A DNA stretch of 64,000 nucleotides from Candidatus Omnitrophota bacterium (GTDB lineage Bacteria; Omnitrophota; Omnitrophia; Omnitrophales; Aquincolibacteriaceae), in assembly GCA_030698625.1 (NCBI GenBank), contig JAUYMS010000042.1, positions 28,150 to 92,149 on the forward strand, given 5' to 3'. The notes under the pieces were generated by a model. It saw only the letters and a program-made list of their open reading frames with translations, did no database searches and was not told the origin of the DNA. This document shows, in pieces, positions 1 through 51,777 of the stretch. Position numbers and translations under genes: made by a program. The stretch's first letter is position 1, and each line of letters starts with the position of its first letter.

Positions 1-3000
1 AGATGGACGGAATCTCAGCGCCGGTTCCCTGGATCAGGGCATCAAAGGCTTTCTTGTCCGTGGACAATCGCATGATACCGGACGTATTCATGACCGGTAT
101 TCCCCGTGACTCCAGCTCCGCCAAGACAGATGCTGGCGCCAGGCCTCCGGTTGCGACGGCATCAATGGGAAGAGGCCTTCTGAAGTGACCGAGCACCAAC
201 CGCCCGTCCTTATCCACAAAAACGGCATAGGATGCGTAAACAGCGTCTGAGTTATCACGCCCGCGGTAAAGGCCGCGAACGGGCGGTATGATGACAAAGT
301 TGGCCTTATCCGTTTTATCCTTTGCCGCCCAGTAAGTGGCGAGTTCAAAGCCCGGAAACCCATTCGGGAACATTGCAACATTGGGCCCCTCAGGATTCGG
401 GAGATCCTCCCAATCGACCTCCTCGACCGCCATGGCCGCATTGTGGCTCGGCAACCCGCCCTCAAAAAGATCTCCGTAGCCCGTTTCTCTAAATTTTGCA
501 ATATCAGAAGCGGCCGTCGCCTGTAATAAGATGGCGGGATCGATCCCCAACTGATTAAACAACTTGTCCTCCAACTCGGCGTAAACTTCTTCTTCGGAGA
601 CGCGCAGCTCGGATCGTCTCGTCGACTGGATGGCTTCCCACAATGCGGTTAGTGCCCCGCCTTCGGCTTCCAACCTGTAATAAATTTCCGGATCGGTGAC
701 ACGATAGACACCGCTTCCAAGCGCCCCGTGTTCATGACGATGCGCCAGCCTCTTATCTAGCCAGTCCGGCCTCAGATCGAGGGCGTTGATCAACTGGAGC
801 CCGGGTGCATTAAAAACAAACGGACTTTGAGGATGTTTGTCGGTGAGATTCCCCAGGTCACGGACAGGTTCAGTTATGTAATAGGTGCCTGGCCGCGCCA
901 GGACTGAAAGCGTATTTCTCAATGCTAAGTACGAATCGATCAATCGTTCCCATATCGGTTCGTCGTTTAGGTCCGCTGCAGATGTGCGGTCCTTATTCTC
1001 ATAGGTGACATTCCGCTTGTAGACGGCATCGGCGCTCCTACCCTCGAGACCGAGCCGCTTCAGCACACCGTCAACACCGTCATAAGCCGATTGAAGCTCA
1101 TCAACATTGAACACATTGGCGTGGAGCACCTCTAGGTGAAGCTGTCCGGGTTGAAGGTCGCCGGGTTCGATCCCCATCAGCTTGATTCCCTTCCCCTGCT
1201 CAAGAGACTTTGTGAACGCGCCGAAGTACATCGGCGTCTGCCTGAAAACAATATGTTCATCGCCGTCGAAGGCGATGAGATGGATATCCCATGCCTTCAA
1301 TTGTTCCCTGACCTGATCCTCGCCATACCGATCTGCGAGTTCTGCCTTGAGCTCGGTGAAAAACATTTTGACTATGTCCCACGCTTCCACGGGATTCCCG
1401 CCGACACCGACTTCGGCCAGAATGACCGTTGTGTCACCAGCATCAAGTTTTTCACGGGCAAGTTGCCGCATAGCAGAGTGAATCAGCTCCGCCTGTAGAA
1501 CGTCTTCATCATTTTCCACAAATCCGATCGTCTGAATAAAACCCGTGGGAGACTCCAAGACATCTCGAGCAAGAGCCGTCAGGTAAGCATCGGTATTGGC
1601 AATACCAATCGTCTCACTCATCTCAGAGCCAATCCCTTCAAAGGTGCCACGCAAATTCGTAATCTGTTCATCCGTGGCAACGGGCACGCCCTCAAGGGCA
1701 GCTAAAGTCTGCCCGAACCGCTTCACGCGGCGCCCGACATGCAGTTCAATGGCGGCATCACTGCGCAGTTCGGAGCGGTCGGCGTCTTTAGCAATCTCGC
1801 GGGCTTTCTCCTCGACCATCGCCTCTAATTCGCCGACAAGGTTGTACTCGAGATAAGCGTTCATCACCGAAGTTCCGGCCTCATCGGCCACCCTTGAGAG
1901 GCGATCGGTTTCTTCGCTGCCCAAGATATTTCTCATGCTGCTATGAAATCGATGCTCACCCTTTGCGATATCCCCAAAGTAGTCTACGTGCTTATTTTCC
2001 AGTTGGGGGTATTCAAGCCGAATGGCATCCAACGCCTCCCGGCGTGCATAAAGGGCCAGGCGCCGCAGGCGCTCGTATTCCACAGTGCCCACAGCGGACA
2101 GGATGTATCCGTTCCCTTCAGGAACAATGTGCTTGCCCACATCGCGAATGACATGCCAGATGGGCATTCCCTTTCTATTTGTACCCGGCTGAAAAACTCC
2201 GTAAAGGAAGCTGTCAAGAAAGAAAGAGACGTGCTCGCTAGTCTCGGCCCACGCGGGGCGCTCTTCATGGATTTTATTAGGGATTGAGCCCGAAAAAATT
2301 GCTGCCGAAACGATTCTTTCCGAGTCCGTTTGAAATTCCGATTGGAGCCGCTGCCGCGTGCGGAACATTTCTGCTCCTGACAAGGCGACATCGTCGAGGA
2401 GCACGACATTCTTGCCCGTGCGTGCAAGTGCCCGAATACCGTCTTCGTCTTCCGGCCTTTCCAAATACAAGAACTCCGGGACATCTTCCGGATGAAATCT
2501 CTGCCACATCAACCGCAGTAAGCGTGCGGCCCAGGGGCCGCTTCCCGGAATGACAATAATCCGGTGCAAGTCTCTCTCGTCTTCGCGGATGCGGTTCATG
2601 AGATTATAGGCAGCGTCTTTCAGGGAGCGCCGCTCGCCGAGAGAGTCATTAATGATATCCCGCATATGAGAGGCCTTTTCCAACGGGTGCTTAATAACAG
2701 CGAGTTTAACCTGGCGGCCGAAGGCTTCAGCTTCGTGAAATTTTGCGATGCGATTACCCGGTTTCAGTACTGTTGCGGTACCCGCTCCGGCGGCAAGCCG
2801 CGCGGCTTCAAATAGGTTCATGCCCCGGCGTTCGGCGTAAATAAAAGCGACCTTGACTGCATCACCTGCGCCGACATCGGAAACGGTCGTGACCGGAGGA
2901 TGCTTGGCGTGATACGTGATTATCTCCTTTTCATTGAACGGGCTGCGACTCGTTGCCAAAATGCCGTCGGCCCCCAAGCTGATAACCACTTTGTTGATAC

Positions 3001-6000
3001 CGCTCCGGATTAGATCCTTCGCATACTCGGCGATCCTGACATAATCGCCTTCGAGCTCACTCACCGGCACACCCAAGTAATCCGCAAGCTCCCTGAGATT
3101 AATACCCAGAAAATGGGGGCGAGCTTCAATGCCGTGCCGGAGGGCCTCCCCCCGCGTGTCGAGATAGGTTAGGATGCCCAGTTTCTTGGCCTCGCGAATC
3201 TTGTCGGCGTAGAACGTTGCCGGTAATCCCGGCGGGAGACTGCCGGAGAAGACCACGTAATCGCCCTCCCTCAGGTGCATGAAGATAGAATCGCTAAGAC
3301 TCTCCTGCTCGGCATCCGTCATATCGGGGCCGCGCGGAGTGACATTCAACTGGTTCCGGTTGCCGGCATGCACATTCATGGCAATGCGCGAATCGCCTTC
3401 GATCGGAGTCATGAGCGCCGTGCCGATATTGTCTTCCAGTTCGGCCTTACCGATCTGAATCGTTCCGGCCGCGCCTCCGAAAGTGCCGGTCGTAATCGGC
3501 GAGATGTCAAAGGCGATAAGGCCTCGCGAAGCGTTAAAACCCTTGCCTCCCGCATACATATTATAAGAATCCGGTACAATGATGCCGTCGGTGCCGTTGG
3601 CCCCGTCTGGGGGAAACTTTTCGAAATCAAAAGATACGTCGAGAATGCCGTTGGCCATCACCGTGACAACGCGCGGCAATCCATCAACGGGGTCAATGCG
3701 CCCTAATGCACGATGATCTCTCGTCGGCTCATACTGCTCAGCATGCTCCTCAGGCGTCTGCCCCACGAACAATTCGAATGTGACGCGGCTCAGATGCTCA
3801 AGCTCGGCAGAACTCAAGCGCTCCGCAGCTTCGTGATAAAGCAGCGGCATTTCCGTAACACGGCCGCTCGTAATGACACCGTTAATGACTGCGCGCATTC
3901 TCCCAACAGGCGCATCGCTTGCCAGCGCATCCCTGAACTGCTGAATCTCGGGACTTTCATCTTGATAAAGATCTGCGCGGCCCGTGATCAGCGCGGCAAC
4001 CCGCCCGATCCCGGCCTTTTCAAAGTCGGTAATCACGTAGTGCGCACCTGCATCTTGCAATTGTTTACGAGAATGCAAGCCGGTTGCGAGCGCAACGGGA
4101 ACGATGCCGGCTTCAAGCGAGGCCGCCTGGCCGCTCAGCGAATCATCCACATAAACAACCTGTTCCGCGGACAAACCCCCTCGGATCTCGCGCAGAAGAT
4201 CCCCTTTCGATCGATTTTTCTCCTTGGCACTTTGAACCTCATCGATGTATTGATCGATACCGAACAAACGGGCCTGACGCATGACCGTGGGTGTGAGGTT
4301 GCTGGTAACCACGATGATCGCGATCTCCGAAGTAGCCTCCTCGGATCTGATGAAATCCAGCAGGGCAATCGACCCCGGAGTCATCCGGTTGTCGCGGGTC
4401 CGGTCTGTCGGCGCAACATAGAGCCTCGCTCGGGCGCTCTCCAAGAGCTGCCCGGCCTTTTCAGTGAGCGTCTCCCCGGGCAGGGCTGCCAGGAATTCCG
4501 AATTCCCGAGTGTTCTTTCCGCCATTTCCAGTAATATTTCTGTATGCTTATCATCCGTGCGGTCGCCGTGCCACAACTCCTGCACGATCTGAATATGCAG
4601 AGCTTCGGCCGCCCCATCCAATGTCCCGTTCGATAGAACAGGCGCCAAGATTTCGGCCAAACGATTCTCGAACCATGAGATCGAATTGTCCCAATCGAGC
4701 ACAAGCGCTTTGACATCACGCGGGGCCACGGCATCGGGCTTCGCCCATAGGGCATCGCCGGTTCTAAGTTCGGAGCGGGCATTCACGATTTCAACGTTTC
4801 CGAAGTAAAGAAGTGCGTCATACCGGAGGTCGGCAGAGGCTCTTGCCGCCTCTTTGACAAATTCTTGCTCGGCATCTAAGAAGCGCGAGCCCCCGAGATA
4901 GCTTATGAAAATTCCGTTTGCTGGCGCGAGCGACAGAATCTCCGCATCCTCGGCATTTCTCAGATTGGCATAAACGGGTTTGATCCAGCTCCTGAGAACC
5001 TCATCCGCCGCATACCGAAGATCCAAGGGTATGCCCGATTCCAATTTGGGTAATAACTCGCTTCGAAAAGAAAACGGGGCCGTTGAACCCGGCGAGGAAT
5101 CCCGATGCCAAGTTTCACCGATTTTCCCATTTTGGATGATGCGAGGGTCATCATAGGTGACCGCATCATCAAAACCCTGGGGATCATCGTAGGAGAAATC
5201 AAAACGTCCGTTCTCGGCAAGGGCAAGGTTCACAATCTCCCTGTCGGCGGCTTCAATCTTCACATCCCAGCTTTTCAACCAGCTTTCGAATCCTTCAAGG
5301 CGTTCCTTATTAGCATCATGAAATTCCTTAAGCGCGTAGTAGATATCCATCGCCAGAGAATAGGGTTCTTCCCCGCTTGAAATACCCACATTTTTAAAGC
5401 GAAGCGTATAATCCTGCCTCGCCTCTTTCCGAACGATAAGTTTGCGAACATATTCCTGAATAGCTGCGTCCTTGTAACGGAAAAATTGGGTGCTCTCCCG
5501 CGAGTAATTCGGGATGGCAGCTAATGCCGAAAAAATCTCCGCCCCTAACCGGAACAATTCATCTTTGTTGCTCTGCAAACCAAATGAAAGGTAATCTCTA
5601 AAACTTTGCCGGTCCTTTAACTTCACGCGGGCATTCATCAAGGACTCAAAATAGTGCCACATCCGGTCTTTGATGGCTTCCGCCCCGATAGCTTGGTAGA
5701 TGCGGTCAATACTCGTTACCGTTTCGCTGTCCAGTTGTCCAAAGACGGCGGCGACAAACCCCTGTTTCAAATCAGCGTCTGCTGCCGCGCCCGTGGTCAA
5801 CGCATTGACAGACTCGAGAATTCTGTTTTCATCCAATGCACGCAGTTCCGAACGGTCGGGCTGAATTAACAGAAGGGCTTGATTGCGCTTATCAAAAAGC
5901 ACCACGGGCGATTCTTTGGACCGCCAAACATTTTGGAAAATCGCCACGGGCAATTGATCCGGATCTTTGACACGCAGCACCAGAAGGACTTCCCGGTTCT

Positions 6001-12000: not shown

Positions 12001-15000
12001 AGCGCAGAAACGGCGCCCTCTGCTCGCCGTCCTCACGCGGCATCCGCCATTCGACATACTCCTCCCGCAGTGCGGAACGCACCTGCTTCGGCGTGCCGCG
12101 AAGGGTTGCCTTCCTGATGAATTCCAGTTCGTAAGAAAGCGGTAGTCCGTTTTTGTCGCGGTATTCAGGGTCGCGAACCCGGATCGAAAGGCCGTCGTCA
12201 GTCACTTCGAGTGTCGGCGCCATCGACTTCGTGCCCTCGAAGAGTTCCTGGAACTCAAATACTTTCGGAGTGCCGTCGGCCTCACCGAGCCGAGACCATT
12301 CGGTCTTGAGATTTCCCGACGGATCAACGTTGATCGCGTAGGTGTCCTGCCTGTCGCGGATCGCGATCTGTCCGATACGCGGCAGGAGTTCTTCGGGGGT
12401 CACTTGAACCCAATTGTCACGGTACACTTCCACTTCGAGGGTGCGCCCTTCGGCTTCAAGGACCCGGGCCATGGCGCTCAGCATATTGGGGTTTACCGTC
12501 CAATTGATTCTCAACTGATTGCGATTCAGATCCAGCGCCCGCTGGCCCGCCCATGTCAGGATGGCTGTCGCAATCCCTTCGCCCTGGTATTTAGGCTTTA
12601 GGTACATGTTGAAGACTTCCACGGCATCACTCCCGTCAAGTTCACCTTGCAGTTCCAGGAGGATGACGCCGTAGCTATCGCCCGCGCGGGGCTCATCCAC
12701 CCGTTTGCCGTGATACCAAACTTCATAGAAACCCCGTGAGGCTCCCGGTGGACGGATAAGATGTGCCGGGCCATGAGCAGTCTCCATCGTCACCCAAACA
12801 ACTTCATTGCTTCCGTTTCGCCGTTCCGTAATGCTTCCGTCCGCATAAGTATCCGTAACAGCGACATCGGTTTCGATTGAAGCGACGCGCGCCCCGAATT
12901 CCTCACTGTCGTTTTCTGCCAACCGGAGAGTGTAAAAGCCGAAAGAAGTTCCGGCTTCGTCCAAGGCACCGTAGTCGGTATGGTCCTTCGCCGCAAACCC
13001 TTCCCTCTCGAAGATACGGATGGTCACTTCATAAAGTTTTTTTGCACCGTCCTTCTCCATAAAACTTTCGTTCCATACGATCACACGCGCATGAGGGACA
13101 TTCGAAAGCAGACGCGGCGAAGCCGCGGCAAGACGCCTGATCGCAACACCGCCGATATCGGGGTCGGCGAGATTGGAGTAGCTATAGAACTTAGACGGCC
13201 GTTTCGCACGCAGCATCAGCCGCGGCAGATTCCACTCCACGAGATCAAAGCGCATACCGGGGAAGGCAAGCTCGCCGTCTGCTGTCACAACATTGTCATG
13301 TACCTTAGCTTCAGCTTCGATGCCGAGCATGCGCGACAGCACGCGCGTATTGGCGACTTCAAGAGGGTTGACGCCCAGGAAATGAAACCGCTTCTGCCCC
13401 GTAGCCAGCCAGATGAGCCAGGCATTAATTCCCGTTCCGGGACCGACGATCAGGGTTTCGAGATCCCGCAGGGTCTCTGCGGGCACATCCTTATAGAGAG
13501 CCAGCGCCTGCTGATAAAGTTGTCTATAGTACTTCGGGTCAGCAACCGTGTACCCTCCCGGCGCGTAGACGAGCGGGAAAACAGGGATGACAATCTTGTG
13601 AAACTCTTCATCAATGCCGGTCAGTTCGTCGAGAAACTCCGGTATTTCACGCGGAGTAAACAGCTGGTCCGTGCGGACAAGGTATCCGTCCCGCGAGGCC
13701 TTTGCGATGCTGAATTGATTGCTGTTCTGTTTGGGAAGCAGTTCCGCGGCGCGCTCGGCTTTTGTTTCGCGCAAGTAATTCTGCAATATGGTTTGATCAA
13801 CATCCCATTGGTGCTTGAATGCCAGCCACTTCTCGCGAGCGCCTGAGGCGCCCGGCAACGGCACATCGAAATGAACCGCGCTCAGGTCAAAGTAATCACC
13901 GCCGCCTGTTGCCGGAAAGATACCGATCACGCGGCCTTCGCGAACGACAATATCGAATTCAGCGGCATCACTCAGTTCGGCACGAAGAATGGAATGCCCT
14001 TTCGGCAGCCCGGTTTCGGCAAAGACTTCCGTTTCTTCCGGTACCTTGAGTGTCAGGATTTCGGCCTCGACCCCGTCGACGTCTACTGTGCGGCGGCCGG
14101 TAATGCGGTCCCCCAGCGCCTCGAGCTCGCCGAGTTCCAGCGCCCCCAGAACCTCCATTGCGGAATAGGTCAATTCCGCAGCACGCAGCTCCGAGCGGCC
14201 GGCCTGTGCCTGCGCGTCTTCTTTCCTCTCTCTGTTTTCGCGGCCCTGCTCGATCATCACGTCAATCCAGGCCTCAACCGAGCGGCCAATACGAGCCTCG
14301 GCCGTAACATCGCCGGACCAAGCGCGTGCACGCAGAAAATAATCGAGATCCCACACGCCTCCCGAATCCTGGCCGTTCACTTCAATGACATGGGGATGAA
14401 AGATGCCGTCTTCGCGCGTCACAATAATGTCGACGCCCATAAAATCCGTCGCGTGCCAGCCCTCACGAAGTAAATTGTCCTCGCGCATCGCCTGTTCGAT
14501 AACCGGATAGGCCTTTAAGGCCTGTGCCTCGGCTGCGGCGCGGATTTGCGCGGCCTCGCCGGCCGTGATCCCGAGCAGATCCGCCAACGCTTCCAGCGTT
14601 ATGGCTTCGGCCCCCAAGCTGATATTCACGGGGCCGCCTTCACGGTCCAGGCGCACCACGATATCGGTGATCACGGGATTTCCGTTCGGGTCGCGCGTGA
14701 CAAAGACACGGAGATTCCAGTCTTTGACGGTGCCGTCCTGCCGGACCAGCGGGGGCGTCTTTCTTTCCTGCAGGACAATGCCCTCGTTTGCCAACAGCAG
14801 GGCCAGACCGTGCCCGCTTATGAGGTCAAGATTCTCCGCGTTGAAAAACCGCACATCCTCTCCGGCCCGGCCGCCGGCCGGCTTGAGGACCGCCTCAGGA
14901 TGTTTGAGCAGGAATTCGGACAGGAGAAGTTTGACCCATTCGAACAGATCGTCATCCGTACGTTCCAGAAAATGCACGGTCGCTTCGGGCCCTTCGGAGG

Positions 15001-18000
15001 CACTTAGACGGCGCCGGGCCACGGCAGGGATGGAGCGATCGCCTAGAAAAACCGAAACCGTGTCCGGAACGGACACCCCCGCTTCACGCAGAAGCAGAGC
15101 CGCAATATCCTTGTCCTCATAGTGACGGAAGAGGCCGTCTTCCCCGGTTCGAACGTCCAACGAACGGATCGTGTCATCCTCATCCTGAGAAAAATCAGCC
15201 ACATGGTCAAGCGCCACGGGTTCCTCGAAGGCGACGATTGTGGGCCGTCCGTTCTGAAACGTAAAAGCATAATCACGGGCCAGCGGATAATTCGCCGCAC
15301 CGACCGGCTCGACCCCAACCGTGCCGGGCGCCACAAGCATATAAAAATTCGCATCCGGGCGCAGCACAGCCCGTTCCAGGAGAGCCAGGTGGTCCTCGGA
15401 TAAAGCGCCGTAAAGTCCGACGTTAATTTTGTCCGCTGACGCCGGCCCGGCATCGCGGTGTTGAATCAGAAACCCCATGGCCGACAGCGCCCCGGAGGCT
15501 GCACCGCGAACCTTTTCCGATTCATGGGCAAGCAGGGCGGCGGCCAATTGGGACTGAGTGCGGCGCGTATCCTGGTCCACACGTCCGAGCACTTTGGCCG
15601 CTGCGGCCGCGATATCGTCGTTCTCGTCTTCAAGGGCGGCACGAAGCGCCGGAATCGCTCTCTGCCGCAGATTTTCGAGATCCTGTAAATTTTCATGCGC
15701 GTCGCGAAGAAGCGCATAGGCCCCAAGGATATCTTTTTCGTCGCTGTTGAGATTGTTCTCGCCCGCGACGGCACGATAGGCCTCGGCCGCGCTCGCGCGG
15801 ACACGGGCAAATTCGTCATCCTTGATGAGCGCCACGAGTTCAGGCAGGGCGTCACGGCCTGCGGTGCCGAGCGCGGTGAGTGCGTCCGCCGCGATCACCC
15901 GCCGCGAAGGCGTCTCTTCCCGCAGCATCACGATCAATGCGGGAAGCGCGGCCCGGCCAAGGGACACAAGACTTTCCATCTCGCTCGCCAAGGCGTAACG
16001 AAATCCGAGCGCAATACTCCGGTAACCCTCACCAAATTCCCGATCCAAATCTCCGGCAGAAAGCAGAACATCGGCGGCGGCTCCGCGCACCGCGAGGGCC
16101 TCGTCTCCCCGCATGACGGTGTTGAGATAACTGCGCAGGCCCGGTACGGAAGCGCTGATATTGCCCAGGACTTGCACAGCTCGCAGCCGAACGCGGTGGT
16201 CTTTGCTGCGAAGCAGGCGTTTGAGACCCGGGGCCGCGGCCTCGCCGTAAGTCGGCAGCACCTCAGCCGCCTGTTCCTGAACGCGCGCGTCATTAGATCT
16301 AAGCGCCCCCGTCCACATTTCCATTTCGTCAGCACGCAGCTCCGAGCGCCCGGCCGGCACGACAAGGGCTTCGGCCTGGCGGATATATTCGAGCACGGCC
16401 GTGATGTCGTCGTCTGAGCGATCGCCGGCTTCCGTGTTGCCCTCGGGGTAACGAGTGACGAGCTGCATATCCCGCACCCTCTCCGTAACTCTGAGATAGG
16501 CGGCTTCGTTGATTTCTATTTGATCAAAATGCTTCAAATCACGAATCGTCTGCGCCAGCTCAGTAGGCCCGTAAGTCGGATCGAGAATAGCTCCACGAAG
16601 CTCCTGCAGGATCGTGGCGAGATCGGAGAACTCGTAAATGCCGGCCTGAACCGTAAAAGCAACCATCGCGTTGTCCAGCTTGGCCTTGTCGTCCGCAGTG
16701 ACCGACAGCGGCAGTTCCGCCTTCGATTCGATGACAAAAACCAGCTGCGAGTCAGCGGCAAGACGAACCACGGCTTCGGGAACAGTGCTCTCATCGTCGA
16801 TCGCGTCTCTCGCACCTTCGAGCGCTTCACCCACAATACGGATAATCTCTTCGTCATCAAGCCCGGCGATCTCTGTCAACTTCCGGTACGCCAGGCTCAA
16901 CGCCCGATCAAACTCGAAAAGGGCTTGTGGGTGTTCCAGCTCGGCGCGAAGCCAGGGGTGATTCTGCGAGAGAGCAAACGCGGTCCGCATATGTGCCGGC
17001 TCATCCGCCCGCAGTTCCGAGCGGAGTCTAGTAATCTCTTCCTTGAGTACCCGCATGAATACGGCAGACCCGGGCGCGCCCAATTCAAGGACGGCCGCAA
17101 ATTGATCCGCTTGCAGATCCATCTCCATATACTGCAATTCATCGTCGAGGACACGAACCAGTTCGAGCGAACCCTGGGGCCCGTAAATCTCTTGGCCGCT
17201 GCGTACTATAGCGCGCGCGGCTTCGGCAGGATCAAAGGGCTGACCGGATCGCGTCAACTCTTCAAATGCCAGCGCAATGAATCCGCGTTCGATCTCTCCC
17301 CGGGAATAGCCGCCGGAGTCAATGACGTAGGGGTCTCCGGTTTCGTCCTCGCGCATAATGTTTGAAAAATTCTTGAGCGCTTCGCGCAGACCGGGAAAGT
17401 CTCTCTTTACTTTTAGGAGGGCCGCCACGGCCTCTTCCCAACGCCCCCGTCGGAGCAGTGAGAAAAGGGTGTGGCCGTGAATCACTTGTGAAGACATCAC
17501 TCCGTAAGTTGTTTCCCTGCCCGGCAGATCTGCCCGCACAAAAACCCCAGCGCGGGGAGCCTTTCCCTGGCGTCCCAAATCGAAGGCAACCTCTGCCTGG
17601 TCGTCGATAAAGGCACCCGCATAGACACCCAGTTCATACAGGGTGCCGTCGACATCGACGGAGAGCGTAATAAAATCGCGCATGCTGCCCGCAGTCTGTT
17701 TAACAATTACGACTTTAACATCCTGCACTGACTGCGCCACCGGGATCTGAAGCTCGGGATAAACTGCCTGCAATGATTCCAAAATGAATTTTCGGCTGCT
17801 CAAAGCCTTTGCCAAGTGACTGACCATCCGCTCGCGGTACTGCTCGGGATGCCTGAATCGGAAGCCCTGCATTCCCGTCACCGTTACCCTGCCCTTGTCC
17901 AGTTGAGCCGCGCCCAATTCCCGCACGGCTCTAAGTTCCGAGCGCACGCGGCCGCCTAGGACAAGCTTTGTTCCGTTGAAGTTGGCAACGGGTTTTACGA

Positions 18001-20074
18001 TCTGAATGGTCTTTGTGGTAACCGGAATGGCCAGCCTGCCGCCGATGGCTTCCAGTAACGGTCCGCGCATATCGTAAAACTGCCCGTCAGCATGCATCTC
18101 AACCTCAAGTCCTGTTTTCGACGAGCGCGCCGCCATCTCAATCAAATATTGAATCGAATCCGTCAGGGAGAGCTCCACCTGCTCGGCAAGCACGCGTGTG
18201 ATTGCCTGTGACTTCCTGACCTCCTGATAGATCCCCACGAGCGCCTTCAGATGCAGAAGCCTGAGCTCCTGCGCCTCTGCCTCGCCTAGGCCCCCAAGTC
18301 TCGCTTCAAACTGCGCATGATCGAGCAACGCGGCTTCAGCCACGCTCATATTGAGCGATGCCGCTAACCTGGATGTGAGCGCGGTAATAAAACGCCCGTC
18401 TCCGGCTGCGGCACGCATATACAAAGCACTTTTGATTTTGGAGTTTTGCAGAGAGGGTGTTTCGATGGGGGTCATGAGCGCATTCACATAGTTTTCGCCC
18501 TCCTGCTCCTGCACTGCTGAAATCCTGGGCGACACCCGCGCATAGGCGATCCCCGCTTCACGAAATTGGCGCGCAAGCCCTTCGGCATGAAAACCGCCGG
18601 TGATCATGACGGCCTTCACTTCGCCGGCTTGCCGCATGGCATCGAGCGCTCGATTCATCATGATTTCATCGCGCTTAAAGGTGCCTTCGTAGAAACGTAT
18701 TGCCAGATCAAAGGCCGCGTCCAATTCTTTGAGGCTCGTAATAGCGAAACGCGTCTTCGAGTTTTTAAGTTTGTCAAGACGGCCCGCATAGGCCGAAGGA
18801 CGCAGGCGCAAAGCATTGGTTTTTACGCGCCGGAATTCGTCCGCCGTCAGTTCCAGCGTGAACAAATTACGGAGAAGGAGATAATCCTGATAATGCTCGG
18901 CCAAGACTTTTTCTGACTCTTCCTTCGCGAGTTTCTCGAGCACCAACTGCGTCAAATGTTTCGTTTCACTGAACAGATCGTAGACATCCATTTCATGCCG
19001 CAAGGTGAAAGTCGCCAAGGCATCGGCGAACTGGGGATACTCCCTGAAGCGAAATCCCGAGGTTCCCATGGCCTGATAGAATCGTTCCAGGAACAGTCTG
19101 GGATTTTCAGATGCTTCATGGGCCCAGCTCAATTCCCCCGTGACCGATACCTCAAACTTCTCAAAGGCCGGCGCAAATTCCGCGCCCGCCTTATGCGAGC
19201 GAAGCCGTATGAGAAATTTTTCCTTTTCCTCTCTCGTCGCCGTGACATCGGCACTTCCCTCAAGCTCCCGCAACTTGAAGAAGCGGATCAGATGCGGCCA
19301 CTCACGCTGATTGCTGACATCCCGGAAATCAATATCGAGGTGCCTTTCCGCGGCCTTCCCCAGGGCATTCAAGTGCCGCAGCAACTCTGAGCGAGAATCC
19401 TGATACAACATCCACTCTTTGAGAAAGGCTCTGAGCTCGGGGTTGAAATAATGGGAACCCAGCACGTCCATCGCCCCCTTCACCTGCGCCAGAAATGCCT
19501 CGTTCGTGTCTTTCTTTTCCAGGACGCGCCGGTAGTTCAGAAGGTTCTCATAATAGACACGTTCGTCTTCAACACCGTGGGCCGTTGCCGCACCGCCGGC
19601 CTTCATCAAATAGAGTTCGGCGCCGCCAACCTCGGCCTGCGCGGCCAGGCGGTCTGCGATCTTGTAATTTAATCGGTCGTCGGCGAAGAAACGCATCGAA
19701 TCCCGATCGAGCGGGCCGCTTGCACCTTCCAGGAAAAGAAGGTTCATCTCGTGGTTCTTAGAAAGATAGCTGAGGATCTCCTGGATATTCTTTTGGGCCT
19801 CGTAACTGGAATGCGCATCCTGAATATGCACGATGGTCGGGAAGTCGACAGCACGGAGGCTTTTTTCTGGAAGATAAGTTTCTTCAATGTGGCCCAAAGA
19901 TTCCGGAATACTGAGCTGCTCGACGAAGGCAAGGTTCTGCACTTCCTTTAATGCAGGCGCGGGCGTCGGACTCACCTCGACCATAAACGGAGCCGGCGCA
20001 GACCACGCCACCGTGGTTAGGGCAAAATTAGCCGCCACAATGAGCGCTATCGTTTTTAGAAACCTGCTTCGCAT
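1..20074 (-). CDS. giant multidomain protein A (signal peptide plus enzyme-domain mosaic); N-terminus at 20074, C-terminus beyond window start; at least 6691 codons in window
   Basis: Minus-strand ATG at 20072-20074 preceded by GAAAGGAAG RBS; hand translation gives MRSRFLKTIALIVAANFALTTVAWSAP..., a signal peptide paralogous to the gene B N-terminus. The frame (codon high ends = 1 mod 3) was verified in-frame by explicit codon-by-codon translation at 12 RSELR sites and several domain motifs between nt 602 and 20074. None of the listed minus-strand ORFs in 1-20 kb uses this frame (all end at 0 or 2 mod 3), so it never closes and was dropped from the track only because no stop lies inside the window. 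In-frame motif matches: PRTase-like GKNVVLLDDVALSGAEM (about 2380-2410); PfkB signatures GGKGFNASRGL (3518-3550) and DVGAGDAVKVAF (2846-2880); HAD motifs ALVLDWDNSI (4679-4708) and VVYVDDS (4139-4160); GNAT motif YQGEGIATAIL (about 12550-12590); HEAT-like GRAALPALIVMLREETPSRR (15900-15958); N-domain ITGGFHAEGL (18575-18598). Confidence 0.8.
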   Translation of the reverse strand, partial: MRSRFLKTIALIVAANFALTTVAWSAPAPFMVEVSPTPAPALKEVQNLAFVEQLSIPESLGHIEETYLPEKSLRAVDFPTIVHIQDAHSSYEAQKNIQEILSYLSKNHEMNLLFLEGASGPLDRDSMRFFADDRLNYKIADRLAAQAEVGGAELYLMKAGGAATAHGVEDERVYYENLLNYRRVLEKKDTNEAFLAQVKGAMDVLGSHYFNPELRAFLKEWMLYQDSRSELLRHLNALGKAAERHLDIDFRDVSNQREWPHLIRFFKLRELEGSADVTATREEKEKFLIRLRSHKAGAEFAPAFEKFEVSVTGELSWAHEASENPRLFLERFYQAMGTSGFRFREYPQFADALATFTLRHEMDVYDLFSETKHLTQLVLEKLAKEESEKVLAEHYQDYLLLRNLFTLELTADEFRRVKTNALRLRPSAYAGRLDKLKNSKTRFAITSLKELDAAFDLAIRFYEGTFKRDEIMMNRALDAMRQAGEVKAVMITGGFHAEGLARQFREAGIAYARVSPRISAVQEQEGENYVNALMTPIETPSLQNSKIKSALYMRAAAGDGRFITALTSRLAASLNMSVAEAALLDHAQFEARLGGLGEAEAQELRLLHLKALVGIYQEVRKSQAITRVLAEQVELSLTDSIQYLIEMAARSSKTGLEVEMHADGQFYDMRGPLLEAIGGRLAIPVTTKTIQIVKPVANFNGTKLVLGGRVRSELRAVRELGAAQLDKGRVTVTGMQGFRFRHPEQYRERMVSHLAKALSSRKFILESLQAVYPELQIPVAQSVQDVKVVIVKQTAGSMRDFITLSVDVDGTLYELGVYAGAFIDDQAEVAFDLGRQGKAPRAGVFVRADLPGRETTYGVMSSQVIHGHTLFSLLRRGRWEEAVAALLKVKRDFPGLREALKNFSNIMREDETGDPYVIDSGGYSRGEIERGFIALAFEELTRSGQPFDPAEAARAIVRSGQEIYGPQGSLELVRVLDDELQYMEMDLQADQFAAVLELGAPGSAVFMRVLKEEITRLRSELRADEPAHMRTAFALSQNHPWLRAELEHPQALFEFDRALSLAYRKLTEIAGLDDEEIIRIVGEALEGARDAIDDESTVPEAVVRLAADSQLVFVIESKAELPLSVTADDKAKLDNAMVAFTVQAGIYEFSDLATILQELRGAILDPTYGPTELAQTIRDLKHFDQIEINEAAYLRVTERVRDMQLVTRYPEGNTEAGDRSDDDITAVLEYIRQAEALVVPAGRSELRADEMEMWTGALRSNDARVQEQAAEVLPTYGEAAAPGLKRLLRSKDHRVRLRAVQVLGNISASVPGLRSYLNTVMRGDEALAVRGAAADVLLSAGDLDREFGEGYRSIALGFRYALASEMESLVSLGRAALPALIVMLREETPSRRVIAADALTALGTAGRDALPELVALIKDDEFARVRASAAEAYRAVAGENNLNSDEKDILGAYALLRDAHENLQDLENLRQRAIPALRAALEDENDDIAAAAAKVLGRVDQDTRRTQSQLAAALLAHESEKVRGAASGALSAMGFLIQHRDAGPASADKINVGLYGALSEDHLALLERAVLRPDANFYMLVAPGTVGVEPVGAANYPLARDYAFTFQNGRPTIVAFEEPVALDHVADFSQDEDDTIRSLDVRTGEDGLFRHYEDKDIAALLLREAGVSVPDTVSVFLGDRSIPAVARRRLSASEGPEATVHFLERTDDDLFEWVKLLLSEFLLKHPEAVLKPAGGRAGEDVRFFNAENLDLISGHGLALLLANEGIVLQERKTPPLVRQDGTVKDWNLRVFVTRDPNGNPVITDIVVRLDREGGPVNISLGAEAITLEALADLLGITAGEAAQIRAAAEAQALKAYPVIEQAMREDNLLREGWHATDFMGVDIIVTREDGIFHPHVIEVNGQDSGGVWDLDYFLRARAWSGDVTAEARIGRSVEAWIDVMIEQGRENRERKEDAQAQAGRSELRAAELTYSAMEVLGALELGELEALGDRITGRRTVDVDGVEAEILTLKVPEETEVFAETGLPKGHSILRAELSDAAEFDIVVREGRVIGIFPATGGGDYFDLSAVHFDVPLPGASGAREKWLAFKHQWDVDQTILQNYLRETKAERAAELLPKQNSNQFSIAKASRDGYLVRTDQLFTPREIPEFLDELTGIDEEFHKIVIPVFPLVYAPGGYTVADPKYYRQLYQQALALYKDVPAETLRDLETLIVGPGTGINAWLIWLATGQKRFHFLGVNPLEVANTRVLSRMLGIEAEAKVHDNVVTADGELAFPGMRFDLVEWNLPRLMLRAKRPSKFYSYSNLADPDIGGVAIRRLAAASPRLLSNVPHARVIVWNESFMEKDGAKKLYEVTIRIFEREGFAAKDHTDYGALDEAGTSFGFYTLRLAENDSEEFGARVASIETDVAVTDTYADGSITERRNGSNEVVWVTMETAHGPAHLIRPPGASRGFYEVWYHGKRVDEPRAGDSYGVILLELQGELDGSDAVEVFNMYLKPKYQGEGIATAILTWAGQRALDLNRNQLRINWTVNPNMLSAMARVLEAEGRTLEVEVYRDNWVQVTPEELLPRIGQIAIRDRQDTYAINVDPSGNLKTEWSRLGEADGTPKVFEFQELFEGTKSMAPTLEVTDDGLSIRVRDPEYRDKNGLPLSYELEFIRKATLRGTPKQVRSALREEYVEWRMPREDGEQRAPFLRYLRESLESYDGAPLTFELWGGLASNVLLQLADVSGMWFTVNDLDIFFYLDDEGELRDVSNDDIANLVRRVGDDLGVQVDGTPVFEDQEGFKRKRRETRTGDLQLNETLIRYDRKTDEFVINMPARAREALDRGEITFTDSSDITEADTLRDKIVVNIGSAVRLNRVAGLNLAQSARTELKTNIARFMAMPAGAGRVTEQALYTDSVLNATKRIAAITPGSTSKALDLALGHDVLELARTSLKLKPRGHKYRNALLSQAQQTAQKYLGVETERTRQLVARYSQPDSLPAGLRPKSRLPEGSLKPAADSDFVILDIPLAVAEARSPIIREMREFLESYESSPSNWDTENGTLAMEFWGGTAINVLLQLAGLTGLWYTIHDLDISVYAQKGGRPQNISMLEHGRVAAKIARDFGLKVDAASAWRSRDSLRDWLQDDSNGYLAINRMTLYLNRQTGTLQIEIPKDVLTALEEGELTVRQMSKRVDVDEVEERIIKNIGSMVRLRQVTGLKPSEEAIEMLRAMILEWNKPGRNKSEKLGLYDRMAVDSARRMAPLFGGRAGEALKAVLSDEALDMARQLLHVRKKGGNHFSRILPLAEEGVQEYMGEDTGEAANVLDRFSLPGPSRELIPNGAAANVDYGQNVGQLRRWVRSELRSEPIEEHKVVNSLAEFNRVVRAWQRQKDGINKVRLFTPEKSQVSDLDFVQGRTEEPMAWIHSISPRVGIDYESAFPYLLTLTQRPLVTDEVDTIENLLTVEFNYEGPETFFDEMPFEASWEPYAVLPDSRHPQHVNYVQDKILVVSVKDMDLLTEGWLKSYLPRSIRSPKIYVLVDRLDQNLKRRIGLAKLIDGVMVMHSTQDDADKWGRNTRGGKGIPIISLVAKGKQPKIKPGDFYNFDWDSKTLWRINPARSELRPEDVFFILAAGLPIAAVLLHILLRRIGGAITNLWMGLLEWRINVYPTGVHRWKLGQILQAARDYNYDYSGIGATSQLEHPVFERIEAAFDRYLETIREHRTWFNNKTKLRLLAEIPEDHPFRDKAHAFLGEIARSPDKRSGVRKLARSLHSGMKSRSELRTAVVPPKEEIAASARKYGRPVSDVFQSAVESGTRVIAFGDMHRAKTLFLYRELIGNLIKASPFTHFAIEAAPAMKPAFDLLLQKWAASGIQDVRDYLAGNYDIIEELRNIIPAKFQSKDGNNYPDKTALDELGVVLTLDSRLFDLGSFLEMLKAVYEKGISIEPIDEKSKGGFVRRTLRDYYTAKRIKRLLDQNANNRVLVYLGELHVVKKHPKRDGIAMIVGILMLDLWSLLPGVGEYLTRWLGEANYYAFGYESSSSYGLGLRESYIHRALGWDDPLRHRDFAVADLDEEDNAIGRLPYYELSGATTLAEMFDATIYVNDEDLRIMDFSRSELRTDGGISAAEEAIASNNIQAMYDSIAKSEGPDIVIVVSSNAAEQRFWEERLQSTKGKVIGENTEVFSVVESYGVSKPAGNGLGSLVAYQSAQQISEAQTGKTWEQLLESIRRTRKREPVIAMYHTAGFGSRIWPITGAEGGSKSKIAMPRHVISGDETMPLTLLESVIFQTSIFARNRGGRLLVFWGDQVFVPTVSHETLSQAAELPLEILSLVGDFDIEELVDKYGLIALGKEGDAWHATRIMEKPKSAESGREFVARHSEVDAIGKSLGSFTASLEFWDGLMESYKRELNETDPKKQDQNSANTDQDWWVPLTRLDFLLKQKERNAAGFSSLRTFRQFIRRQGIAADEVSNKMINLFWKQHRDSAQPLMRVIDVGSHALWWDFGNVATEEDLSEGVFRHNMLVLLEDSAEGRLARQFWDVPEPETGTLFDGNLRLENAVVLNANLDPRSRGVIRNSVVSGLGGWFDLSLERSFIHAVQDTRQSKKSPLVLSADNAIAYKLNLRRTTKIPAQHVLAGIRAPVTGDLVLRTTERMDPKTMWESAHGGNLSAFRDVSNLLRTAVNEPVIAGHKIRGLIDKGFLTHEKKRYPIFDGLDEQNREVLLVLRVKDPDQLPVAIFQNVWRSKESPVVLFDKRNQALLLIQPDRSELRALDENRILESVNALTTGAAADADLKQGFVAAVFGQLDSETVTSIDRIYQAIGAEAIKDRMWHYFESLMNARVKLKDRQSFRDYLSFGLQSNKDELFRLGAEIFSALAAIPNYSRESTQFFRYKDAAIQEYVRKLIVRKEARQDYTLRFKNVGISSGEEPYSLAMDIYYALKEFHDANKERLEGFESWLKSWDVKIEAADREIVNLALAENGRFDFSYDDPQGFDDAVTYDDPRIIQNGKIGETWHRDSSPGSTAPFSFRSELLPKLESGIPLDLRYAADEVLRSWIKPVYANLRNAEDAEILSLAPANGIFISYLGGSRFLDAEQEFVKEAARASADLRYDALLYFGNVEIVNARSELRTGDALWAKPDAVAPRDVKALVLDWDNSISWFENRLAEILAPVLSNGTLDGAAEALHIQIVQELWHGDRTDDKHTEILLEMAERTLGNSEFLAALPGETLTEKAGQLLESARARLYVAPTDRTRDNRMTPGSIALLDFIRSEEATSEIAIIVVTSNLTPTVMRQARLFGIDQYIDEVQSAKEKNRSKGDLLREIRGGLSAEQVVYVDDSLSGQAASLEAGIVPVALATGLHSRKQLQDAGAHYVITDFEKAGIGRVAALITGRADLYQDESPEIQQFRDALASDAPVGRMRAVINGVITSGRVTEMPLLYHEAAERLSSAELEHLSRVTFELFVGQTPEEHAEQYEPTRDHRALGRIDPVDGLPRVVTVMANGILDVSFDFEKFPPDGANGTDGIIVPDSYNMYAGGKGFNASRGLIAFDISPITTGTFGGAAGTIQIGKAELEDNIGTALMTPIEGDSRIAMNVHAGNRNQLNVTPRGPDMTDAEQESLSDSIFMHLREGDYVVFSGSLPPGLPATFYADKIREAKKLGILTYLDTRGEALRHGIEARPHFLGINLRELADYLGVPVSELEGDYVRIAEYAKDLIRSGINKVVISLGADGILATSRSPFNEKEIITYHAKHPPVTTVSDVGAGDAVKVAFIYAERRGMNLFEAARLAAGAGTATVLKPGNRIAKFHEAEAFGRQVKLAVIKHPLEKASHMRDIINDSLGERRSLKDAAYNLMNRIREDERDLHRIIVIPGSGPWAARLLRLMWQRFHPEDVPEFLYLERPEDEDGIRALARTGKNVVLLDDVALSGAEMFRTRQRLQSEFQTDSERIVSAAIFSGSIPNKIHEERPAWAETSEHVSFFLDSFLYGVFQPGTNRKGMPIWHVIRDVGKHIVPEGNGYILSAVGTVEYERLRRLALYARREALDAIRLEYPQLENKHVDYFGDIAKGEHRFHSSMRNILGSEETDRLSRVADEAGTSVMNAYLEYNLVGELEAMVEEKAREIAKDADRSELRSDAAIELHVGRRVKRFGQTLAALEGVPVATDEQITNLRGTFEGIGSEMSETIGIANTDAYLTALARDVLESPTGFIQTIGFVENDEDVLQAELIHSAMRQLAREKLDAGDTTVILAEVGVGGNPVEAWDIVKMFFTELKAELADRYGEDQVREQLKAWDIHLIAFDGDEHIVFRQTPMYFGAFTKSLEQGKGIKLMGIEPGDLQPGQLHLEVLHANVFNVDELQSAYDGVDGVLKRLGLEGRSADAVYKRNVTYENKDRTSAADLNDEPIWERLIDSYLALRNTLSVLARPGTYYITEPVRDLGNLTDKHPQSPFVFNAPGLQLINALDLRPDWLDKRLAHRHEHGALGSGVYRVTDPEIYYRLEAEGGALTALWEAIQSTRRSELRVSEEEVYAELEDKLFNQLGIDPAILLQATAASDIAKFRETGYGDLFEGGLPSHNAAMAVEEVDWEDLPNPEGPNVAMFPNGFPGFELATYWAAKDKTDKANFVIIPPVRGLYRGRDNSDAVYASYAVFVDKDGRLVLGHFRRPLPIDAVATGGLAPASVLAELESRGIPVMNTSGIMRLSTDKKAFDALIQGTGAEIPSI
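9213..9272 (-). other. internal hydrophobic TM-like segment of giant protein A (VFFILAAGLPIAAVLLHILL), immediately C-terminal to an RSELR linker
   Basis: Explicit in-frame translation of 9181-9300 gives NPARSELRPEDVFFILAAGLPIAAVLLHILLRRIGGAITNL: a 20-residue apolar stretch followed by RR. Confidence 0.5.
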
Positions 20075-28517: not shown

Positions 28518-28541
28518 CACGGCGACTTACGGAGGACTTCT

Positions 28542-29294
28542 ATGGCCGCAATGGTAGAGTTTATAGGGATCAAGAAATGCTACGGCAATAAGGTTGCCGT
28601 CAAGGGATTGGATCTCGAAATCAACATGGGTGAGATTTTTGCGCTTGTCGGCCCGAACGGCGCGGGGAAAACCTCCAGTCTCAAGATGCTCGTCGGGCTT
28701 CTCAAACCCACGGGAGGGCAAATCCGCATCGGCGGATACGATTTCGCCGCTGAGCGTGTTAAAGCAAAAGGCCTCGTGAGCTTCGTTCCCGACACGCCCT
28801 ATGTCTACGAAAAACTAACACCGTGGGAACTGCTCCGTTTCGTAGGCAAACTCTATTCGATGCATCCGAAAGTGATCGAAGAAGAAGGGACCATGCTCTT
28901 GGAGTTCTTTTCTCTGTCTCATGTGCAGGATGTCCTCATCGAGGAATTCTCGCACGGCATGCGCCAAAAGGCCGTACTCGCCTCCGCGCTCGTCCACCAA
29001 CCCAAGGTATTCATCCTGGATGAACCGATGGTGGGCCTTGACCCCATGAGCATTAAAAGTTTCAAAGACTTCATACGCAGAAAAGCGGCCGAAGGCATGA
29101 CGATCATCCTGTCCACTCACGCCCTGTATCTCGCCGAGGAACTTGCGGATCGTATCGGAATTATCCACGAGGGCGAGTTGATTGCGCTTGGATCGATCAA
29201 GGACTTGCAGAAGAAATATCAGTCGCGGGAAAATCTGGAAAACATGTTCATCAAACTTGTCGAAACCGAAGAGATTCGTTCCCAAAAGGAATAG
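28542..29294 (+). CDS. ABC transporter ATP-binding protein
   Basis: Walker A GPNGAGKTS; Walker B ILDEP; 250 aa; 24-nt gap after the transglutaminase-like gene. Confidence 0.9.
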   Translation: MAAMVEFIGIKKCYGNKVAVKGLDLEINMGEIFALVGPNGAGKTSSLKMLVGLLKPTGGQIRIGGYDFAAERVKAKGLVSFVPDTPYVYEKLTPWELLRFVGKLYSMHPKVIEEEGTMLLEFFSLSHVQDVLIEEFSHGMRQKAVLASALVHQPKVFILDEPMVGLDPMSIKSFKDFIRRKAAEGMTIILSTHALYLAEELADRIGIIHEGELIALGSIKDLQKKYQSRENLENMFIKLVETEEIRSQKE

Positions 29295-29296
29295 GC

Positions 29297-34659: not shown

Positions 34660-34682
34660 TATAATGAGGGATGTCGAGCTTA

Positions 34683-35261: not shown

Positions 35262-35538
35262 GCTTTTGACTTTTTTTCTTTTCCCGCTATTGAGAATTGG
35301 ATCACAAGCTGCGAATGACGATAAAATGCCAACAACCTCTCTTCCGGAGAAAGGGAGCAATTCAGTTTGATAAGGTCGTCGTAATCTTGTTGAAGAACGC
35401 GCGATTTCATAACAAAAATATACCACACTCCGGCTCAAAAAGGATCAAATGAATAGCGTTCCAAAGTAGTTTCAATTGGGACCAATTATACCAGTGGCTC
35501 AGGGCAGTTGAAACACTCAAAGAAGCCCGTTCAGCTAT

Positions 35539-51504: not shown

Positions 51505-51777
51505 CTAGAGGAGCGTAAAAGCGAGCATCCCCATGAGGATCATGAGGATAATAAGGATAAGCCTTCCGTCCTTGATCCATTTCGCAAGCTTTCCGATCGG
51601 CCCGGAATCATCAAAAACCCGTTCGCCGCAATAGAGGCAGGAAAAGCTATTTTCCTTAATCGGCTGGCCGCAATGACGGCATGAAATATCGGCAAGAGGC
51701 CGGGATTCTTCGGCTTCCCATTTCTTGCGAAGGCTCTCGGGTTCTTCTTCCTCTTCTTCGTTAGGCATAAATCTCAA
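51505..51777 (-). CDS. small zinc-ribbon protein with acidic N-terminus and C-terminal TM helix, translationally coupled to giant gene C
   Basis: CRHCG...CLYCG zinc ribbon; C-terminal LILIILMILMGMLAFTLL. ATG overlaps the gene C stop by 17 nt. Confidence 0.5.
   Translation of the reverse strand: MRFMPNEEEEEEPESLRKKWEAEESRPLADISCRHCGQPIKENSFSCLYCGERVFDDSGPIGKLAKWIKDGRLILIILMILMGMLAFTLL

Follow-up and report, generated by a model that had tools for sequence, protein, structure and literature searches.

Do the giant proteins of the Omnitrophota act as single membrane-threaded chains or are they cut into their component enzymes, and if so, where? The question is raised by a stretch of 64,000 nucleotides from a Candidatus Omnitrophota bacterium (GenBank assembly GCA_030698625.1, contig JAUYMS010000042.1, positions 28,150 to 92,149 of the forward strand), here called the window, which carries three giant open reading frames (ORFs) that we name A, B and C. 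Giants of this phylum have been described as "Archaeovorins" (West-Roberts et al. 2023, bioRxiv 10.1101/2023.11.21.568195) and as "multi-enzyme metabolic cluster" proteins with both a signal peptide and transmembrane (TM) helices (Nielsen & Lui 2026, bioRxiv 10.64898/2026.06.07.730766). They are rich in HEAT, GT5/GT1, HAD_2, GNAT, methyltransferases and sugar-metabolic enzymes, and at up to about 147,000 amino acids (aa) are among the largest predicted proteins. Of the long Omnitrophota proteins, 39% are predicted to have both signal peptide and TM helices, and one or both are found in 94% of the catalogue. Whether such proteins act as single chains is a stated open question. Their glycolytic enzymes are predicted to be extracellular, a paradox for which proteolytic processing has been suspected, and the cleavage points are stated to be not known (West-Roberts et al. 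2023, 10.1101/2023.11.21.568195). In phylum, in domain vocabulary and in its combination of signal peptide and TM helix, A belongs to these already described multi-enzyme giants. A metabolic module tethered to the envelope, as suggested in an initial annotation of this DNA, is not unprecedented; giants of this kind and the puzzle of their localisation are already in the literature.

The three giants share a pentapeptide, RSELR, which occurs 12 times in A, six times in B and three times in C (21 sites against 0.038 expected from composition; Table 1). It occurs in no other gene and no other frame of the window. The 21 sites use five arginine, three serine and six leucine codons. Such synonymous variation points to the peptide, rather than the nucleic acid, as the target of selection, and an origin of the repeat at the DNA or RNA level was rejected on the same ground. 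All of the sites lie outside the envelopes of Pfam domains. Their flanks are not conserved; the residue that follows is A, T or S at 17 of the 21. The segments between successive sites measure 155-1,372 aa, with a median near 600. A consists of at least 13 autonomous modules in a row, each made up of one or several complete enzyme domains.

One module of B, with RSELR on both sides, resembles the reductases RmlD and MAT2B. The second residue past its RSELR is matched with residue 3 of 2ydx_A; in the alignment with 2ggs_A, a free-standing archaeal RmlD, the third residue falls on residue 2. Judged from these alignments, the module is one complete reductase that starts 1-2 residues past RSELR, at the position of a native N-terminus.

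The reading frame of A is open on the minus strand from 20182 to position 2 of the window. Its ATG (20074) is preceded by GGAAAAGAAAGGAAG, a purine-rich ribosome-binding region. Since no stop is met in 6,691 aa, A extends past the edge of the window, as the initial annotation had it. An artefact of assembly or frame was considered and rejected: the frame is open over 20 kb, real domains are found throughout and the same locus is present in an independent assembly. The open frame together with 21 RSELR sites where 0.04 are expected excludes chance. The independent copy, a Logan contig of SRR13727534 (24,148 bp), holds the same gene block with an identical aminotransferase and stops 776 aa into A; the break illustrates how short-read assemblies fragment giant genes.

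A scan for relatives, with one genome per species, gave at least 571 loci, often several per genome, and 80 of these were fetched. The named homologues of the N-terminal 540 residues of A are all Candidatus Omnitrophota, as is every organism-titled locus among the 80. Motifs were counted in the 80 ORFs that start with the N-terminal domain of A (N-domain), 169,778 aa in total. The pattern R[SA]E[LIVM]R is found 176 times in them against 2.3 expected, and 59 control patterns of permuted order had a median of 3 copies and at most 17. Flanking residues are again unconserved, with A, P, S and G abundant among them. In the same 80 loci, ORFs of 150-600 aa hold only 4 copies in 260 thousand residues (kaa), whereas giant ORFs hold 170 in 165 kaa and 22 in 17.7 kaa; the pattern is also frequent in ORFs of more than 2,000 aa that lack the N-domain. 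Delimiters differ among lineages and are uniform within each protein (Table 1). On these counts we read RSELR as the local form of a junction motif, R-x-E-x-R, that spans the phylum and varies from lineage to lineage. We take the delimiter SLDNGG to recall double-glycine or LxGG protease sites. A phosphoribosyltransferase (PRT)-like domain occurs as a stand-alone module with RSEVR as its delimiter in L035, RSELR in P0018 and SLDNGG in P0021. That one domain carries different delimiters marks them as punctuation outside the domain proper. Full-text literature searches for RSELR-type motifs matched only irrelevant items (the varSelRF R package, papers on PL7 alginate lyases and one materials paper), and a search for Omnitrophota polyproteins or cleavage sites of giant proteins found nothing. 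The junction motif therefore appears to be undescribed so far.

At least six signal-peptide-like or TM segments start 1-8 residues past a junction motif, where the rough chance expectation is below one. In L070 the sequence reads RSELR-AWKIAAAVVALSLSSVFAALA and then NDM, that is, a signal peptide with a textbook AXA site stands straight after the motif. Published topology pipelines suppress internal signal-peptide calls and would therefore miss signal peptides in this position.

Signal and TM calls for A, B and C were made with Kyte-Doolittle hydropathy and the Hessa biological hydrophobicity scale. By these scans the N-terminus of A, MRSRFLK followed by an apolar stretch and VAWS/AP (Kyte-Doolittle mean 1.78, unweighted Hessa sum +2.17), resembles a cleavable signal peptide and not an anchor. 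The AWSAP motif is kept among homologues. Further along, A has one convincing internal TM helix, with a Kyte-Doolittle mean of 2.55 and a Hessa sum of -0.89, the only negative Hessa segment across A, B and C. It starts three residues past RSELR junction 6. The acidic residues before it and the RR after it fit an N-out/C-in orientation. A second hydrophobic stretch, aa 3977-3995, was considered as a TM helix and rejected. Its Kyte-Doolittle mean is 2.05, yet its Hessa sum of +3.08 and its central Asp led us to conclude that it is probably not a TM helix; it aligns to a region of beta-strand in the N-domain. Of the sisters, B has neither signal peptide nor TM helix and C has a signal peptide alone.

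Pfam is silent over most of A. The families met along it (HEAT, ATP-grasp-like, GNAT-like, NTP-transferase-like, CheR, HAD, PfkB and PRT fold) include none that dominates by copy number. The initial annotation had described a giant mosaic of normally cytoplasmic enzymes behind a secretion signal, with HEAT repeats, a HAD phosphatase, a PfkB/FruK-type kinase bearing both family signatures and an internal TM segment. All of this was supported, the signal being signal-peptide-like, and its motif coordinates are correct to within 1-4 nt. The HAD domain scores just over the gathering scores of two Pfam models (Hydrolase, 27.5 bits against 26.4; HAD_2, 26.1 against 23.8). The PfkB domain matches PF00294 with an E value of 6e-25 (88.6 bits against 25.8), and the translation contains GGKGFN (aa 5509) and DVGAGDA (aa 5733). 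Its match to the hexose kinase model TIGR03168 is strong (E 1e-53, 181.9 bits) and lies under the curated cut-off of 216.4; that to TIGR03828 (172.8 bits) lies under a cut-off of 292. The best match in the PDB is the fructose-1-phosphate kinase 2abq (E 1e-27). The domain is thus 1-phosphofructokinase/hexose kinase-like in its predicted subfamily, a placement from which the substrate is not assignable.

Fused to the HAD and PfkB domains, with no delimiter between, is the PRT-like domain. Searched alone, this region gave nothing significant in the PDB or in a word-indexed protein search; its sole match of note was PRTase-CE, at E 0.039. An exhaustive HMMER search with it recovered eight relatives, seven within other long proteins and one a protein of 217 aa. 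A profile built from 10 such regions matched PRPP (phosphoribosyl pyrophosphate) synthetase 1u9y at 5e-5 and HPRT 6igs at 6e-4 in the PDB, and about 55 of the 60 matches listed are PRT-fold proteins. These profile matches support assignment of the PRT fold. The PRPP loop differs among the 10 family members in all but an invariant DD pair. The canonical loop is an acidic pair followed by x-x-[TSAD]-[TS]-G-x-[TS], which the loop of A does not fit. Its degeneracy makes canonical phosphoribosyltransferase activity in A doubtful. Of the type-I PRTase-like domain first proposed here, the fold therefore stands and the canonical PRPP loop does not.

A GNAT-like motif had also been proposed, and this fell short. 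The region scores 20.7 bits against a cut-off of 27 with Acetyltransf_7 and 17.9 against 20.7 with Acetyltransf_1, so that no Pfam model exceeds its gathering score. The recognisable part is the motif-A region (QGEGIA) only. Three GNAT models of Pfam and the three best PDB matches fall on this same stretch, with PDB E values of 0.14-0.86, none significant. Module 5 contains two copies of a unit of about 300 aa (BLASTP of the halves, 29% identity, E 3e-49) with no RSELR separating them. There is no Pfam match to either copy. Both have a WGG...(N/H)DLDI motif, which by inspection may be read as the signature of a Pol-beta-type nucleotidyltransferase. In module 8 a pattern was seen by eye that recalls ChaN and TIKI; an hhalign comparison with the N-domain profile was not significant, and the module gave no homologues and no Pfam match.

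The N-domain is common to A and C (28% identity) with the same invariant residues, H83, H88, E116, E169, R468, G493, G494 and H496, and is absent from B. The initial annotation had correctly placed it in a second giant, which is C. An AlphaFold2 model from a 19-sequence alignment (predicted local distance difference test, pLDDT, 84.5) has an alpha/beta core interrupted by a helical insertion of about 310 residues. The fold is TIKI/ChaN/erythromycin-esterase-like, with a common alpha/beta core; the domain differs from the TIKI/TraB-PrgY/ChaN/erythromycin-esterase superfamily in the insertion, which splits that core. Its pattern of His...His, Glu, Glu, Arg and GGxH resembles the H/E/R/GxxH signature of the TIKI superfamily, which was reportedly set out by Sanchez-Pulido and Ponting in 2013. 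At the level of sequence, no Pfam match was obtained and the family profile gave chance matches only against PDB sequences. A Foldseek search of the PDB likewise returned no significant match. Among the structural neighbours of the N-domain are HopBA1 and RRSP, a MARTX endopeptidase, both of them injected effectors. A minimal member of the family, in L026 (2117-4258, minus strand), is a protein of 706 aa consisting of signal peptide, N-domain, one RSELR, a module of about 170 aa and a tail ending in YLKSA. It lies upstream of the main match of that locus and forms a tandem pair with a longer paralogue. Such tandem paralogues with the N-domain are found in 5 of the 80 loci.

The full-length long proteins almost always end in a tail formed by an amphipathic helix and then [A/S]-A-COOH (..SSAA, ..ASA, ..KSA, ..RTAA, ..EIYA). 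Alanine is the last residue in 31 of 33, against 12% of the ordinary ORFs in the same loci. B has the tail despite having no N-domain; P0021, delimited by SLDNGG and also without an N-domain, does not. Possible roles for the tail are those of a secretion signal at the C-terminus, a tag bound by PDZ domains or a degron-like tag.

Table 1. Features of the giant proteins in the window, with delimiters, post-junction segments (signal-peptide-like or TM) and tails of relatives (L and P numbers).
Feature	Position (nt) or relative	Strand	Residues (aa)	Remarks
Giant ORF A	2..20074	-	at least 6,691	5' end complete, 3' end off the window
Signal-peptide-like N-terminus of A	20000..20074	-	1-25	MRSRFLK...TTVAWS/AP
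N-terminal domain of A	18464..19933	-	48-537	alpha/beta core, helical insertion of about 310 aa
RSELR junction 1 of A	17930..17944	-	711-715	
RSELR junction 2 of A	17009..17023	-	1018-1022	
RSELR junction 3 of A	16334..16348	-	1243-1247	
HEAT repeats of A	15575..16306	-	1257-1500	Pfam HEAT_2 E 4.9e-15; also HEAT, HEAT_EZ
ATP-grasp-like region of A, weak	14363..14713	-	1788-1904	ATPgrasp_YheCD E 4.9e-5, 23.1 bits vs cut-off 26.8
RSELR junction 4 of A	14183..14197	-	1960-1964	
GNAT-like motif-A region of A, sub-threshold	12488..12667	-	2470-2529	
Tandem internal duplication, module 5 of A	10061..12094	-		copies at aa ~2677-2975 and 3005-3308
RSELR junction 5 of A	10052..10066	-	3337-3341	
RSELR junction 6 of A	9278..9292	-	3595-3599	
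TM helix of A, VFFILAAGLPIAAVLLHILL	9209..9268	-	3603-3622	PED precedes, RR follows
RSELR junction 7 of A	8798..8812	-	3755-3759	
Module 8 of A	7799..8794	-	3761-4092	FGDMH...E...RD...GELH, ChaN/TIKI-like by eye; holds stretch 3977-3995
RSELR junction 8 of A	7790..7804	-	4091-4095	
Sugar-nucleotidyltransferase-like region of A, weak	7037..7291	-	4262-4346	NTP_transferase E 0.0011, 19 bits vs 21.2
RSELR junction 9 of A	5840..5854	-	4741-4745	
CheR-type methyltransferase fragment of A	5315..5494	-	4861-4920	N-terminal part of SAM-binding domain; Pfam CheR 28.5 bits vs 27
RSELR junction 10 of A	4763..4777	-	5100-5104	
HAD phosphatase domain of A	4100..4714	-	5121-5325	motif I DWDNS, motif IV VDDS
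PfkB-family sugar(-phosphate) kinase of A	2702..3670	-	5469-5791	GG and GAGD motifs intact
PRT-fold domain of A	2144..2638	-	5813-5977	degenerate PRPP loop DDVALSGAE
RSELR junction 11 of A	1763..1777	-	6100-6104	
RSELR junction 12 of A	602..616	-	6487-6491	
Giant protein B	51761..63964	-	4,067	no signal peptide, N-domain or TM helix; alpha/beta-hydrolase module; end ...AVEIYA
RSELR of B	62402-62416, 61214-61228, 58028-58042, 55391-55405, 53594-53608, 52697-52711	-		
RmlD/MAT2B-like reductase module of B	52712..53593	-	294	RSELR both sides; Pfam RmlD_sub_bind E 1e-39
C-terminal tail of B	51764-51823			
Giant protein C	37859..45337	-	2,492	signal and N-domain as in A; GT5+GT1 glycogen-synthase-like module; end ...EELRTAA
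RSELR of C	43283-43297, 41303-41317, 38777-38791	-		
C-terminal tail of C	37862-37921			
RSEAR/RSETR delimiter	L002, L050, L009			
RAEAR delimiter	L025			
Variant delimiter	L033			also with variant delimiter
RPESR/RPEAR delimiter	L036			12 in all: RPESR 9, RPEAR 3
[AQ]SLG delimiter	L023, L058			7 times in L023, 6 times in L058
SLDNGG delimiter	P0021		5,131	13 times
Signal peptide or TM segment after junction	L070		2417-2445	
Signal peptide or TM segment after junction	L009		1771-1810	
Signal peptide or TM segment after junction	L046		718-750, 1497-1530	
Signal peptide or TM segment after junction	L059		1383-1415, 1522-1555	
Signal peptide or TM segment after junction	window, 9209-9292			
C-terminal tail in relatives	L016, L019-L027, L029, L032, L033, L041, L050, L057, L059, L061-L063, L065, L067-L070, L073, L080			
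C-terminal tail in relatives	P0003, P0005, P0018, P0019, P0023-P0025			

The modular anatomy, the motif with its selection at the peptide level, its recurrence across the phylum and the native-like starts of modules are the basis on which we read A as a polyprotein that would be cut at the RSELR junctions. Belief and doubt are evenly balanced on this reading, and the cleavage, its compartment and its protease are put forward as proposals. The giant gene would be an operon at the level of protein: a dedicated endopeptidase would recognise the junctions and free the modules, each of which would go where its own N-terminus directs it. Export would be the fate of module 1, a signal peptide with a TIKI/ChaN/erythromycin-esterase-like hydrolase domain, and the N-terminal TM helix of module 7 would hold that module in the membrane. 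The enzymes that depend on ATP, S-adenosylmethionine (SAM), acetyl-CoA or sugar phosphates (HAD-PfkB-PRT, ATP-grasp, GNAT-like and others) would remain in the cytoplasm. The model accounts for the sharing of this architecture by B, a protein without signal peptide or TM helix, and would resolve how cofactor-dependent enzymes come to lie behind a signal peptide. For the Omnitrophota giants at large, that they are true bacterial polyproteins, freed at lineage-specific delimiters by co-evolving proteases and with each module sorted by its own signal, is a proposal we make tentatively, with doubt slightly the stronger.

Several observations weigh against cleavage. The obvious protease candidate, the N-domain, is predicted to be outside the cytoplasm, is missing from B and also heads proteins delimited by [AQ]SLG. 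An AlphaFold2 model of A 48-740 did not dock junction 1 on the N-domain, though with pLDDT below 50 past residue 538 it says little either way. Sequence clustering of neighbours in the 80 loci revealed no protease gene that recurs beside the giants; the recurrent neighbours, read by inspection, are a UvrD-like helicase, a PilZ-like protein, a PlsC-like acyltransferase and a TPR protein, besides the tandem N-domain paralogues. In L021, L050, L065 and P0019 the motif lies only 3-9 residues from the C-terminus, which is odd for a site that serves purely to separate modules. Among the longer modules, which reach 1,372 aa, some have several domains and no internal delimiter. Published topology predictions, moreover, treat the giants as single membrane-threaded chains.

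The proximity of some motifs to the C-terminus would suit a docking tag better than a cleavage site, and this is one of the points in favour of a megaprotein that is never processed. In such a protein aa 26-3600 would be exported, the TM helix at 3603-3622 would stop transfer and the C-terminal sugar-phosphate enzymes would be tethered to the envelope on its cytoplasmic side. RSELR would serve as a hinge or short docking motif, to which HEAT or TPR modules, for example, might bind, and would fold the chain into a metabolon. The signal-like N-terminus and the one strong TM helix, whose charged flanks are compatible with N-out/C-in, are as this arrangement would have them; signal peptide plus TM helix ranks second in frequency among the predicted classes of Omnitrophota giants, and HEAT repeats are their most common domain. 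HEAT repeats bind peptides in other systems. A periplasmic N-terminal part and a cytoplasmic C-terminal part had been proposed in the initial annotation. However, the ATP-grasp-like, GNAT-like and tandem nucleotidyltransferase-like units (aa 1700-3340) would then be outside the cell, without cofactors, so that a split of this kind leaves the paradox standing. The single tethered metabolic polypeptide of that annotation also fits poorly with B, which has the same architecture and punctuation with no signal peptide or TM helix, and the RSELR junctions and module starts like those of free-standing proteins argue for separable units. A hinge would not need an invariant, lineage-specific sequence, and internal modules that have complete signal peptides and AXA sites after the motif would be left unexplained. 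We consider an unprocessed chain, the main rival of the polyprotein reading, rather unlikely.

Cofactor-dependent enzymes behind a secretion signal would be accounted for in another way if A were a secreted multi-effector resembling the MARTX toxins, delivered into a host or prey and cut there, with its enzymes drawing on the ATP, SAM, acetyl-CoA and sugar phosphates of the host and redirecting host metabolism. Omnitrophota have been inferred to be episymbionts or predators, peptides of giant ORFs are up in attached cells, and HopBA1 and RRSP, which are among the structural neighbours of the N-domain, are injected. The [AS]-A tail, which B and C share with 31 of 33 full-length relatives, could serve as a secretion signal. 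Against this, no hallmark of MARTX is seen: Pfam scans of A, B and C show no CPD/C80 protease and no glycine-rich RTX-type repeats, and no type I secretion genes adjoin in the window. A Sec-type N-terminal signal combined with a C-terminal one would be atypical, and an internal TM helix would hamper release. Glycogen synthase, RmlD, 1-phosphofructokinase and HAD look like housekeeping sugar metabolism and not toxins. We regard delivery into a host as improbable. An invariant short motif exactly at junctions might also act during translation or in the nucleic acid, as 2A-like ribosome skipping, recoding or a scar of recombination or assembly, which would separate the products with no protease or have no function in the protein. 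This is very hard to reconcile with codons that vary synonymously at all five positions, with no conserved RNA or DNA element, and with the same locus having been assembled independently in SRR13727534. Known 2A-type stalling peptides are much longer than five residues with unconserved flanks, and we know of no bacterial precedent. We hold it to be most improbable.

Between the giants lie the housekeeping genes rpsB-tsf-pyrH-frr (45.6-48.5 kb) and genes for MTHFR, SurE, an aminotransferase and an aldehyde dehydrogenase. An exact database look-up of protein C found no record. A gene for an M48-family metallopeptidase (50459-51580, minus strand) stands directly downstream of B; it adjoins B in this window only, and as it does not recur among the 80 related loci its link to processing is weak. 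At 27072-30952 the plus strand encodes, in this order, a protein of transglutaminase-like (cysteine-protease) fold, an ABC ATPase and an ABC_tran_2 protein; these genes are divergent from the gene block next to A. A stretch between A and C (33430-37837) has a GC content of 0.47-0.49 against about 0.54 elsewhere. It holds a PIF1-like helicase, a DUF6036/DUF2204 nucleotidyltransferase, a recombinase zinc-ribbon fragment (36523-37425, plus strand) and small ORFs, and looks like the remnant of a mobile element.

The RSELR junctions are concrete candidate cut sites and make the question of whether giants are cut, and where, directly testable. The motif can be searched for in existing metaproteomes and mutated in heterologous constructs, and permits division of giants into modules for structure prediction and annotation. 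If the polyprotein reading is true, the "largest bacterial proteins" never work as single chains, and metabolic enzymes predicted to be extracellular are in fact cytoplasmic. Published readings of membrane topology, including the extracellular display of glycolytic and nucleotide-sugar enzymes, would then need revision. The polyprotein strategy, so far typical of viruses, would be a general form of gene organisation in a bacterial phylum. If cleavage is false, there is still a short linear motif, under strong selection throughout the phylum, to be explained.

Among the closest known systems are the Omnitrophota giants themselves. They share with the family of A the phylum and the repertoire of HEAT_2, HAD_2, GNAT, methyltransferase, GT5/GT1 starch synthase and sugar kinases, and with A the signal peptide, the sparse TM helices and the localisation paradox of metabolic enzymes. 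The catalogue thresholds are 10 kaa and, for Archaeovorins, 30 kaa, which is more than the 2.5 and 4.1 kaa of the sisters of A and than the 6.7 kaa or more of A itself that lie in the window, where its edge cuts A short; neither paper on giant proteins reports junction motifs, a TIKI-like N-domain or a C-terminal alanine tail. The eukaryotic fusions AROM, CAD and fatty-acid synthase likewise join several enzymes of related metabolism in one polypeptide. They have a fixed domain order, no repeated junction peptide and no signal peptide or TM helix, and work uncut.

The MARTX toxins of Vibrio are, like A, bacterial mosaics of several thousand residues built of separable enzyme modules, and theirs are released by inter-module cleavage. 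MARTX cleavage sites are loosely defined (after Leu), with no invariant pentapeptide. A, B and C differ from these toxins in having no CPD, glycine-rich repeats or adjacent type I secretion, and in a cargo of sugar and nucleotide metabolism in place of cytotoxic effectors. From the viral polyproteins (flavivirus, picornavirus, potyvirus) A differs in being a cellular chromosomal gene among housekeeping genes, with a metabolic cargo and with cleavage that is here only inferred. In common with them it has many complete proteins in one ORF and a short, lineage-specific consensus that recurs from junction to junction. Flavivirus polyproteins also have internal signal and TM segments, by which their products are distributed across the two sides of a membrane.

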